The position numbers were made by a program, and so were the translations under genes. Positions 24,641 through 26,465 of a stretch of DNA of 64,000 nt are shown piece after piece. The notes under the pieces were generated by a model that saw only the letters and a program-made list of their open reading frames with translations, was not told where the DNA came from and ran no database searches. Each line of letters begins with the position of its first letter. The first letter of the stretch is position 1. Origin of the DNA: Escherichia phage A7_1; the sequence record OP795442. The stretch is one strand, 5' to 3'.

Positions 24641-25329
24641 CCATCGGCGTGACTCCCCCAACTCTATTAATCCCTTCCCCATTTGGATCATCATATCTTA
24701 CCCTATCTAATCATCAATCCAATCACCCTTTGGAATCTCTCTCCCAAAAATCTAAACTAATCTGATAGCTTACCACAACATAACACACAAAGAAAGAACT
24801 ATTTTGCCCACAAAGAAAGGCAGTTTTAAAGAGATACCATTGCCAGAGTATGGAGGTGGCGCGACCGTAGGGAGCGACACTATAAAACGAGTATACCCCT
24901 CCTACCGCTATGCGGTCATCGGTGATAACCGATATCGTTACACGCTATCTGTTCTCTTCGTTTCCTCGTTTTATAGTGTCTATCTGTAGTAATCTTTTAT
25001 CCTTTGTCAACAGATTAATTGGCTTATAGACAATTATTTATAGTGATTTATTATGCATAGCTACTGATTATGTATGCAATAAGGATACAATAAGGATACA
25101 GTAGCGGTAGTGTAGCGACGCTGTAAATATCAACAAAGAGATGCCGTATTTGCCCACAGAATGAACAAGTAAGCAGGGCGGTACGCCCTTTTGCTAATGA
25201 GCGTAGCTCTTTTGCTAGGTAAAACTCTCTTCTCTCTTCTTTCCCAAAATAAATTTTTTCTTGCTTTTATTGCCAGAGTATGGCGGGGCGCTCAGGCTAT
25301 TGATGGCCCTGATGGAGTCGCTCCTGTAC

Positions 25330-25390
25330 AGTTGGAATAGTTCACAGTTGGATAGTCACAAGTTGGTATTATTCTTCCCACTAGTTGGAA
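25330..25390. repeat. four direct repeats AGTTGG(A/T)
   Basis: copies at 25330, 25346, 25361, 25384. Confidence 0.6.
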
Positions 25391-25648
25391 CAGGCCAGAA
25401 CTGGCAAGGCTTAGAGTCGCTCCACTTGTTGGACGGAAGAAGGGCGCTTGCAGTGCGTATAAGTTGTATTATGTTAAATGCAGATCGAAATCGGTATTCT
25501 AAATCAGATTCAGAAGTCAATAGAAATCTTTAACTTTATTGTTGGGGTAGCACAACATTTTTCTTGACAAGTCGAATCAAAGATGTATTGTGGATTGAAA
25601 ATAAATGAAGATAATGCTTGACTTCTTGGATATTTTGAAAACATCGGA

Positions 25649-25665
25649 CCCCCTCCCCCTCCCCC
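25649..25665. repeat. C5-T-C5-T-C5 tract (G-tracts on opposite strand)
   Basis: CCCCCTCCCCCTCCCCC read directly. Confidence 0.9.
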
Positions 25666-26061
25666 ACGGTCGCCGTGCCTGGCAGCAGTGCCAACGCACT
25701 CAACAAAAAAGAGGCAAACATCCTGTTCTTATCGACGAAGACAACTGACCTCTACTGACGTGACTACAATTGGTGCGTCTCTTCAGGCCATCACCTTTGG
25801 GCACAGATATATTTGGGCAGGATAAATAATGGACCCACCCCGTCATTAGTGACTCAAAATTTTGGCGGGAGGGTATAAAAACTAAAAAGTGGTCGTTTAA
25901 AATTTATGGCAGAGGTCCACTCAGGGTAGACATATACTAAAAATTCTAAACTACTGGAAATTATAAACTACAAGACGGGTGGATGTATAGGGAAGGGAGG
26001 TGACTCAGTGGGAAGTGGTATGTGGTAAGGGATTTATACACACGAGCCTCACTAGGCAAAT

Positions 26062-26102
26062 GTGACTCTGTGGACAATAGGTATTACTCTGTGGACAATC
26101 GG
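26062..26102. repeat. two direct repeats ACTCTGTGGACAAT (DnaA-box-like TGTGGACAA)
   Basis: copies 21 bp apart. Confidence 0.7.
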
Positions 26103-26171
26103 AATAACATGAAGTAGGTCAGTCTCTTCAGAAAGTCTTGACCATTGTGGAAATATATGAAGTAATCCGTC

Positions 26172-26214
26172 AACCAAAATGGTTTACATTGTGGAAAGTA
26201 AACCAAAATGGTTT
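26172..26214. repeat. two copies of palindromic AACCAAAATGGTTTA
   Basis: copies at 26172 and 26200, each followed by ATGTGG. Confidence 0.7.
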
Positions 26215-26465
26215 AGATGTGGGTAAACAGATGTGACTCGACAGGCAAAGTGGTGTGTCTCAGTAGGCCAACAGTGGTTACTCTTTAGGCAAACTACCTG
26301 ATTTTGGGATGAATCGATATTTGTGGGAATCGTTGTACGATATTTGGGCATTATTGTAGGTGGAGTACAACAGTTTGGAAGGACTATATAGTTTGGTGAG
26401 CACAACATTTTTGGTACTGGTACAGTATTTTTGGGGGAAGCATGGTGGCTTGGTTGCAATCCAGA

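Follow-up and report, generated by a model that had tools for sequence, protein, structure and literature searches.

Gene-free gap at 24641-26465 of Escherichia phage A7_1: probable genome terminus region with a predicted 462-bp direct terminal repeat

Short direct terminal repeats (DTRs) are already known in rV5-like phages, and in four lineages the physical genome ends map, as a short DTR, inside a gap that is free of open reading frames (ORFs) and on which two transcription blocks converge. In Escherichia phage A7_1 (record OP795442) we analysed the matching gap, positions 24641-26465, in a 64-kb window (the whole stretch of 64,000 nt studied here). The phage is a Septuagintavirus-type, rV5-like coliphage of the Vequintavirinae, and its gap is very probably the terminus region of a linear, non-permuted genome, composed of a left flank, a 462-bp DTR and a right flank. 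A sequence-only reading of the same stretch had proposed a packaging or terminus region, and this proposal is well supported: in relatives, documented or record-encoded terminal repeats occupy the syntenic gap, and the border motifs of those repeats are present at 25218 and 25679. The window as a whole was ~90% identical to phages A5-4, A73, W70, vB_EcoM-LTH01 (LTH01) and UPEC06, all of them Vequintavirinae, and the same five phages were the sole GenBank matches (89-92% identity) when 2.3 kb around the gap was used as a blastn query. A5-4, A73 and W70 are the 'Septuagintavirus' isolates of Cortes-Martin et al. 2024 (PMC11370258). The termini of this clade are unreported in the searchable literature, and a term search of the two Septuagintavirus papers did not find 'terminal'. 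The ends documented in relatives are as follows.

Gotham (Vequintavirus): 459-bp DTR, annotated at both record ends, with doubled coverage and one fixed packaging start.
EdH4 and HdK5 (Vequintavirus): 458-bp DTR.
KPP-1 (Mydovirus): 514-bp DTR at 116,316-116,829, inside its own gap, from coverage and PhageTerm.
Hena1 (Henunavirus): 519 bp, annotated as 'direct terminal repeat 1/2' (DTR1, DTR2).

At least nine further independent records, many of them from Vequintavirus and including KP12 (Mydovirus), open or close at exactly the same two borders, and the bov10K2 record, in its version 2, now begins at this border of the repeat. A second line of background comes from Bas54, a V5-like member of the Vequintavirinae: a transposon-screen preprint (HIDEN-SEQ, 10.1101/2025.11.20.689424) reports zero insertions in a ~2-kb gap that separates oppositely transcribed blocks, and its authors flag functional importance and an unknown role for the gap; a term search of the preprint text did not find 'terminal repeat'.

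In the A7_1 window the repeat and its two borders were located at the following positions.

25218-25679, no strand assigned: predicted 462-bp direct terminal repeat, a single copy in the collapsed assembly (UPEC06 ends, conservation, relatives' repeats).
25213-25225, no strand assigned: predicted left terminus cut site TGCTA^GGTAAAAC (^ marks the cut), followed by a tract with 18/20 pyrimidines (UPEC06 record start; motif common to Gotham, KPP-1 and Hena1; regular-expression match).
25670-25687, no strand assigned: predicted right terminus cut site TCGCCGTGCC^TGGCAGCA (UPEC06 record end; Gotham/KPP-1/Hena1 motif; sole match in 64 kb).

UPEC06 is the closest relative with informative record ends. 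The first and last 462 bp of its record are 100% identical and map to 25218-25679, an interval that coincides with the best-conserved block of the gap. The borders compare as shown below, with all relatives given in window orientation.

Left border, window: TTTGCTA^GGTAAAACTCTCTTC
Left border, UPEC06: TTTGCTA^GACAAAACTCTCTTC
Left border, Gotham: TATGTCA^GACAAGTTTTTCTCC
Left border, KPP-1: ATTGCTA^AACACAATTCTCTCT
Left border, Hena1: TGTGCTA^AACACTTTTCTATCT
Right border, window: CCGTGCC^TGGCAGCA
Right border, Gotham: CGTCCGCC^TGGCAGCA
Right border, KPP-1: CTGTCCGTC^TAGCACC
Right border, Hena1: TTGTCCGTC^TAACAGA

The border motifs are conserved across four lineages; the right cut-site motif reads GTCCGTC^TAGCA in KPP-1 and GTCCGTC^TAACA in Hena1, and the right ends of the repeats are C-rich in Gotham, KPP-1 and Hena1 as well. 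From the cases with record or published repeats we built a border rule in the form of a regular expression (left, TG(C/T)(T/C)A^(G/A)(A/G)(C/T)A plus a pyrimidine tract; right, G(T/C)C..G(T/C)C^T(G/A)(G/A)CA; ~460-520 bp apart) and scanned the window with it on both strands. The right-site pattern occurred once, at 25679, and its sole correctly placed partner was at 25218, a unique pairing that places the repeat at 25218-25679. In each of PVP-SE1 (2075-2589 of the PVP-SE1 locus compared), 4MG, GAP31 and EC152 the same expression matched a single left site and a single right site, separated by 515-516 bp, and in four further contigs it gave pairs 512 bp apart, so that the rule predicts 512-516-bp repeats in eight more genomes, PVP-SE1 included. 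Read from outside to inside, both borders appear to share roughly TG(C/T)(T/C)A^(G/A)(A/G)C(A/G), and the two cut sites would therefore be inverted copies of each other. Directly before the left border (25185-25217) the sequence GC(C/T)CTTTTGCTA is duplicated 21 nt apart, giving the TGCTA half-site twice; A5-4, LTH01 and UPEC06 have a single copy. An exact 25-mer from the repeat had zero matches in IMG/VR and metagenome contigs. The 342-bp repeat of the Stephanstirmvirinae phage BME3 was considered as a further case and rejected: its borders show no clear similarity, the BME3 record is of poor quality, and the genes of this phage do not converge.

The gap is delimited by two hairpins.

24614-24639, plus strand: GC-rich, terminator-like hairpin closing the plus-strand block, GGGCCGC-TATT-GCGGCCC then TTATTATA (from sequence; kept in 6/6 clade members).
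26466-26493, minus strand: terminator hairpin closing the minus-strand block, GCACCC-CAATTGT-GGGTGC then TTTTTG on the minus strand (from sequence; kept in six relatives).

The last plus-strand ORF ends at 24604, ahead of the terminator arms at 24614-24620 (GGGCCGC) and 24625-24631 (GCGGCCC), and the minus-strand block ends at 26509, so that 24641-26465 does lie between two convergent terminators, where two transcription blocks had been said to converge. The accompanying statement that this interval holds no credible coding sequence also stood. The gap does contain ORFs of at least 30 aa, a few of which are annotated in some relatives, but an alignment of six genomes (the window and its five relatives) contained no conserved gap ORF, each one carrying frameshifts or stops in at least one relative; coding sequence was rejected after all gap ORFs of at least 39 aa had been compared with the five relatives and none found conserved. 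Within the gap ORFs the three codon positions had similar numbers of variable columns (13/14/9 and 9/11/11, for instance), with no third-position excess, and because the ORFs are broken among relatives and lack that excess we regard the gap as genuinely non-coding. The same convergent ORF-free gap was found in every genus examined. In rV5 it is an unannotated gap of 2.6 kb at the matching convergent position, which is orthologous to the window gap on the basis of an adjacent 90-aa protein that is 70% identical. Nineteen GenBank 'Campylobacter phage' records (MG0656xx; host Campylobacter jejuni) are ~93% identical to the rV5 gap, and their host assignment looks doubtful.

Conservation within the six-genome alignment was markedly uneven. 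Three blocks (24640-24990, 25215-25703 and 26260-26465) were near-invariant, and two segments (24990-25215 and 25700-26260) were indel hot spots; the left flank is accordingly conserved over 24641-24990 and variable, with two alleles, over 24990-25215, while in the right flank the order is reversed, with the hot spot at 25700-26260 followed by the conserved 26260-26465. In W70 the variable part of the right flank (window ~25700-26050) is interrupted by an HNH-type ORF of 160 aa (W70_248; 2876-3358 of the W70 locus compared), and this natural insertion shows that the segment tolerates large insertions. In A73, 105 bp from the left part of the repeat, TTGCCAGAGTATGGCGGGG included, are duplicated in tandem (~2380-2490 of the A73 locus compared; window ~25285). 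The duplication is located exactly where the locus_tag numbering wraps (A73_1/A73_264) and may therefore have arisen during assembly, at the ends of the original contig. Hot spots in the middle of each flank, the HNH insertion and the duplication are what would be expected if the gap were decaying, functionless DNA, a graveyard of small accessory genes and homing-endonuclease footprints at a recombination hot spot. Such an origin for the gap is nevertheless extremely improbable, as the three blocks are 95-100% conserved in six phages with differing neighbouring genes, elements are conserved across six lineages, and the equivalent Bas54 gap yielded zero insertions.

Under the terminus reading, the virion would carry 25218-25679 at both ends as a direct terminal repeat, and because the repeat collapses to one copy in the assembly the outermost gene blocks appear convergent on a gene-free gap. 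By analogy with T7-type short-repeat phages, replication would produce head-to-tail concatemers with one repeat copy per junction, terminase would cut at two sequence-specific sites that are the repeat borders, and processing would duplicate the repeat. The two terminators would keep transcription out of the junction, and the flanks would serve as cis-acting parts of the terminus machinery. The comparison shows where these elements lie, how long they are, what their borders are and how well they are conserved; that this particular genome is packaged in this way, and what its flanks do, we infer.

The left flank contains the following elements.

24641-25217, no strand assigned: left flank, non-coding DNA preceding the right-end repeat copy (alignment of six relatives; no conserved ORF).
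24857-24875, plus strand: TGGCGCGACCGTAGGGAGC, a conserved box that directly adjoins the left inverted-repeat arm on its 5' side.
24876-24980, no strand assigned: long-range inverted repeat with arms GACACTATAAAACGAG (24876-24891) and CTCGTTTTATAGTGTC (24965-24980).

The box beside the left arm (TGGCGCGASCGKAGSGAGC) was kept in nine aligned genomes from five lineages, and a blastn query with the inverted-repeat region of PVP-SE1 matched the window clade at the box itself, 24857-24875; a pattern derived from it, GGCGCGASCGKAGSGAGCGACAC, found eight viral contigs. The inverted repeat has perfect arms of 16 bp and a 73-nt loop holding two small hairpins, and it lies 237 bp before 25218. A record or published coverage fixes the repeat border in four genomes (window, rV5, KPP-1 and Hena1), and in these the distance was 237-309 bp. 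The top-ranked inverted repeat of the gap proved to be the orthologue in every other lineage examined, with perfect arms of 16-22 bp in six lineages (rV5, 18 bp; KPP-1, 21; PVP-SE1, 18; 4MG, 20; GAP31, 19; EC152, 17; Hena1, 22; pEp_SNUABM_01, 21; one further contig, 18) and with loops of 116-204 nt outside the window. PVP-SE1 and GEC_vB_MG have a third copy of the arm 285 nt downstream. A mirror-image CCAM array in the left flank was sought and rejected, there being no enrichment (6 copies versus 5.0 ± 2.6).

We aligned the arms, joined by a synthetic linker, and found that 15/22 pairs had changed on both sides with 0 one-sided changes, and that none of the 37 changed cells was a G-T/G-U intermediate. 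Folded as single-stranded DNA the inverted repeat gave z = -5.6, with 0/200 shuffles doing as well, compared with z = -2.8 for the RNA fold, and the stem was equally good on both strands. Because G-T/G-U intermediates are missing and the DNA fold has the stronger z-score, these results point to DNA that folds into a hairpin or cruciform, to two protein sites of the same sequence, or to concerted evolution, and make an RNA stem less likely; box and inverted repeat together would act as such a hairpin or cruciform or as a paired protein-binding site. One more feature bears on a possible RNA product of the gap.

25564-25591, plus strand: sigma-70-like promoter TTGACA-16-TATTGT inside the repeat, whose left-end copy points into the right flank (consensus match only).

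The gap might encode a non-coding RNA, either a structured RNA formed by the inverted-repeat element or an ~870-nt leader running from this candidate promoter through the right flank, or both. Five relatives carry the promoter unaltered, and UPEC06 differs by a single change, within the second hexamer (TATTGC); block 24764-24990 exceeds the genes beside it in conservation; compensatory changes and a negative RNA fold score are seen for the stem; and phiTE, a related phage, makes a non-coding RNA from another part of its genome. The pseudo-ToxI of phiTE was nonetheless rejected as a precedent, as it is located near the tRNA/terminase region and not in the convergent gap. Set against these points are the pairing pattern and fold scores given above, which fit DNA pairing or protein sites better, together with the lack of any Rfam match (Rfam 15), either across the whole window at the gathering score or in 24500-26600 at E <= 1, and we judge an RNA explanation of the gap to be rather unlikely.

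The right flank carries an array of short, oriented repeats.

25680-26465, plus strand: right flank, non-coding DNA after the left-end repeat copy, with ~26 strand-biased KTGG-type repeats.

KTGG occurs here 26 times on the plus strand as against 6 times as its complement, whereas a 786-nt window holds on average 4.9 ± 3.6 copies, and 25680-26465 is the maximum of the 64 kb. The bias was retained in 6/6 clade members (16-27 versus 4-6) despite sequence turnover. The repeats of the flank include CTCTTCAGG at 25779 and GATATTTG(T)GG at 25808, 26316 and 26339, both common to the right flanks of the window clade and rV5, and two palindromes AACCAAAATGGTT within 26169-26218. In 49 kb of rV5 (rV5 60000-109000; reverse-complement coordinates 4097-29416) the octamer CTCTTCAG has nine copies on one strand as against a single copy on the opposite strand, and four of the nine are in the right flank of the gap.

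Repeats of this kind had led the sequence-only reading to suggest a replication origin as its other option. In such an origin the short direct repeats would act as iterons, and DnaA-box-like TGTGGACAA sites would recruit host DnaA or a phage initiator. The suggestion is not supported, and an origin in or coextensive with the gap is unlikely. Four one-mismatch DnaA-box hits do fall within 193 nt (26034-26226), where ~0.1 would be expected from the window-wide density; the short repeats are dense and strand-biased; the inverted repeat is AT-rich; the Bas54 gap took no insertions; and T7-type phages have secondary origins near their ends. The perfect DnaA box TTATCCACA, however, occurs nowhere in the 64 kb, and the segment 26034-26226 that bears the hits is missing or rearranged in LTH01, UPEC06 and A73. 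The hits overlap TGTGG repeats and look like a by-product of the KTGG/CTCTGTGG array. No cluster of conserved consensus DnaA boxes (TTATNCACA) beside an AT-rich unwinding element, as at oriC, was found in the gap, nor were regular tandem iterons of 17-22 bp next to an initiator gene: the repeat cores measure 4-9 nt at irregular spacings of 5-90 nt, and no initiator gene is adjacent. The cumulative GC skew reaches its maximum at 26-27 kb, which is the polarity of a terminus or simply the strand switch. Nothing specific supports an origin in the conserved flanks. Compared with oriC- and iteron-type origins, the gap is similar in its clustered short repeats, AT-rich palindromes and DnaA-box-like nonamers, and dissimilar in its lack of perfect or conserved boxes, its short and irregular repeats, the missing initiator gene and the terminus-type skew.

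Every repeat that the earlier reading had listed is present where it was said to be, although the tandem CAATAAGGATA at 25077-25100 has a period of 11 and not 12. The sequence TTGCCAGAGTATGG(A/C)GG occurs at 24839 and 25269, 430 apart, and in the right flank ACTCTGTGGACAAT occurs twice (26065 and 26086, spanning 26065-26106), as do AACCAAAATGGTTTA (26169 and 26198) and CGATATTTG(T)GG (26316 and 26339). The first of these pairs and the repeats inside the DTR are listed here.

24839-24856, plus strand: copy 1 of ATTGCCAGAGTATGG(A/C)GG, aligning with the TCGTTCGCGTWATCGTGG motif (from alignment).
25269-25286, plus strand: copy 2, ATTGCCAGAGTATGGCGG, within the terminal repeat at a distance of 52 nt from the left end.
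25330-25389, plus strand: four AGTTGG(A/T) direct repeats inside the terminal repeat (25330, 25346, 25361, 25383).
25649-25665, plus strand: C5TC5TC5 tract (CCCCCT x2.8), ending 14 nt before the right border.

The TCGTTCGCGTWATCGTGG motif that aligns with copy 1 at 24839 is itself repeated in other genera.

On the left of the gap, the terminator hairpin GGCCGC-(AATA/TATT)-GCGGCC is found at 24302-24317 and again at 24615-24630, bracketing the last plus-strand gene (24326-24604); LTH01 and UPEC06 have a different gene in this slot, which looks like a swappable cassette. The 90-aa protein near the gap (23472-23744, plus strand) is called 'DNA translocase FtsK' in several GenBank records (nomo, APECc02 and UPEC06) and belongs to phrog_11701, a PHROG of unknown function. 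The label was considered as pointing to a KOPS-like reader of the repeats and rejected, as the protein has no significant Pfam match; the small proteins adjoining the gap had zero matches to replication-related families. A locus search with the neighbouring protein as query returned just two Vequintavirus contigs. Ribonucleotide reductases, a polymerase exonuclease subunit and a CCA-adding enzyme are among the products of the minus-strand block to the right of the gap. The tRNA nucleotidyltransferase (CCA-adding enzyme) gene lies at 43943-45241 on the minus strand, yet ARAGORN found no tRNA or tmRNA genes in the window. Two adjacent, overlapping minus-strand ORFs (30571-31818 and 31721-32953) both match RCC1-like 'regulator of chromosome condensation' PHROGs and look like tandem paralogues.

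A more far-reaching proposal, which we put forward tentatively and hold to be possible but doubtful, is that the entire gap is a conserved cis-acting 'terminus organiser' in at least six Vequintavirinae lineages. In such an organiser the box and the inverted repeat, the latter maintained by strictly Watson-Crick compensatory change, would form a DNA hairpin or cruciform at a roughly fixed distance upstream of the right repeat copy and provide a priming or resolution site for repeat duplication, the two terminase cut sites would stand in inverted symmetry, and a lineage-specific, oriented array of short repeats just inside the left end would load the packaging or ejection machinery. If true, this would account for the zero insertions across the ~2-kb gap of Bas54, and PVP-SE1 and perhaps phiTE, both published as permuted, would have fixed ends. 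The conserved inverted repeat and box with their compensatory changes, and the symmetric cut-site consensus that yields a predictive border rule, appear under-described, and the inverted repeat and the consensus offer concrete cis-elements to mutate. True ends matter for genome records, for rebooting or engineering coliphages that are therapeutic candidates, and for reading essentiality maps.

Several observations weigh against the terminus reading or its mechanistic parts. The ends of this genome are predicted from those of relatives, and the record of the nearest informative relative, UPEC06, is labelled a 'partial genome', so that the 462 bp common to its two ends might in principle be an overlap left by the assembly. 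The KTGG array was not found in rV5, which has other motifs there. Perfect pairing was the criterion by which the inverted-repeat arms were selected, which makes their 100% pairing partly a matter of construction. Zero insertions in Bas54 could reflect poor marker expression in untranscribed DNA, as selection in that screen needed expression of a transposon-borne marker. T7 lacks a perfect inverted repeat of 16-22 bp before its right repeat and was rejected as a direct precedent; a hairpin intermediate was reportedly described for T7 by Chung, Nardone and Hinkle in 1990, and because T7 has no comparable inverted repeat the hairpin analogy leans on that description. Finally, published restriction and Bal31 analyses described the genomes of phiTE and PVP-SE1 as circularly permuted with terminal redundancy, phiTE is a generalised transducer, and PhageTerm called two vequintaviruses, bov10K2 and BpE1AUH, permuted or partly permuted. 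This last group of results is what headful packaging of a circularly permuted genome would give, with the gap as a pac site only and the terminal repeats of records as assembly or annotation artefacts. Independent groups, however, obtained twofold coverage and fixed ends in Gotham, EdH4/HdK5, KPP-1 and Hena1; the at least nine independent records that open or close at the same two nucleotides, and the revised start of bov10K2, agree with them; and the border motifs are conserved and correctly spaced even in PVP-SE1, published as permuted. A blastn search from Hena1 did not reach the gap of the Certrevirus phiTE. Taken together these results make headful packaging very unlikely, and fixed ends with a short DTR remain the reading that we prefer.

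Compared with known systems, the predicted terminus of A7_1 resembles the T7/T3 concatemer junction, with its 160-bp terminal repeat, in having a short exact repeat with sequence-specific ends at a gene-poor junction, and in having an oriented array beside the repeat, as the CCTAAAG-type arrays of T7 abut its right repeat. It differs in belonging to an unrelated myovirus of ~140 kb, and in that the genes beside both ends are transcribed outward, whereas those of T7 run in one direction. Bas54, from a different lineage of the subfamily, likewise has its gap between oppositely transcribed blocks. The closest likeness is to the DTRs of Vequintavirus, Mydovirus KPP-1 and Henunavirus Hena1. Here the internal repeat sequence is unalignable between genera (blastn with the window gap finds the five clade members only) and the short repeats of the right flank are lineage-specific (KTGG/CTCTGTGG in the window, CTCTTCAGG in rV5). 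The predicted DTR is new only for the Septuagintavirus-type clade, and since such repeats were already known in rV5-like phages the result is a solid annotation with mechanistic leads rather than a new kind of system: A7_1 shares with these phages the subfamily, the syntenic convergent ORF-free gap, the size class of the repeat, the homologous border motifs, and the inverted repeat and box of the left flank.

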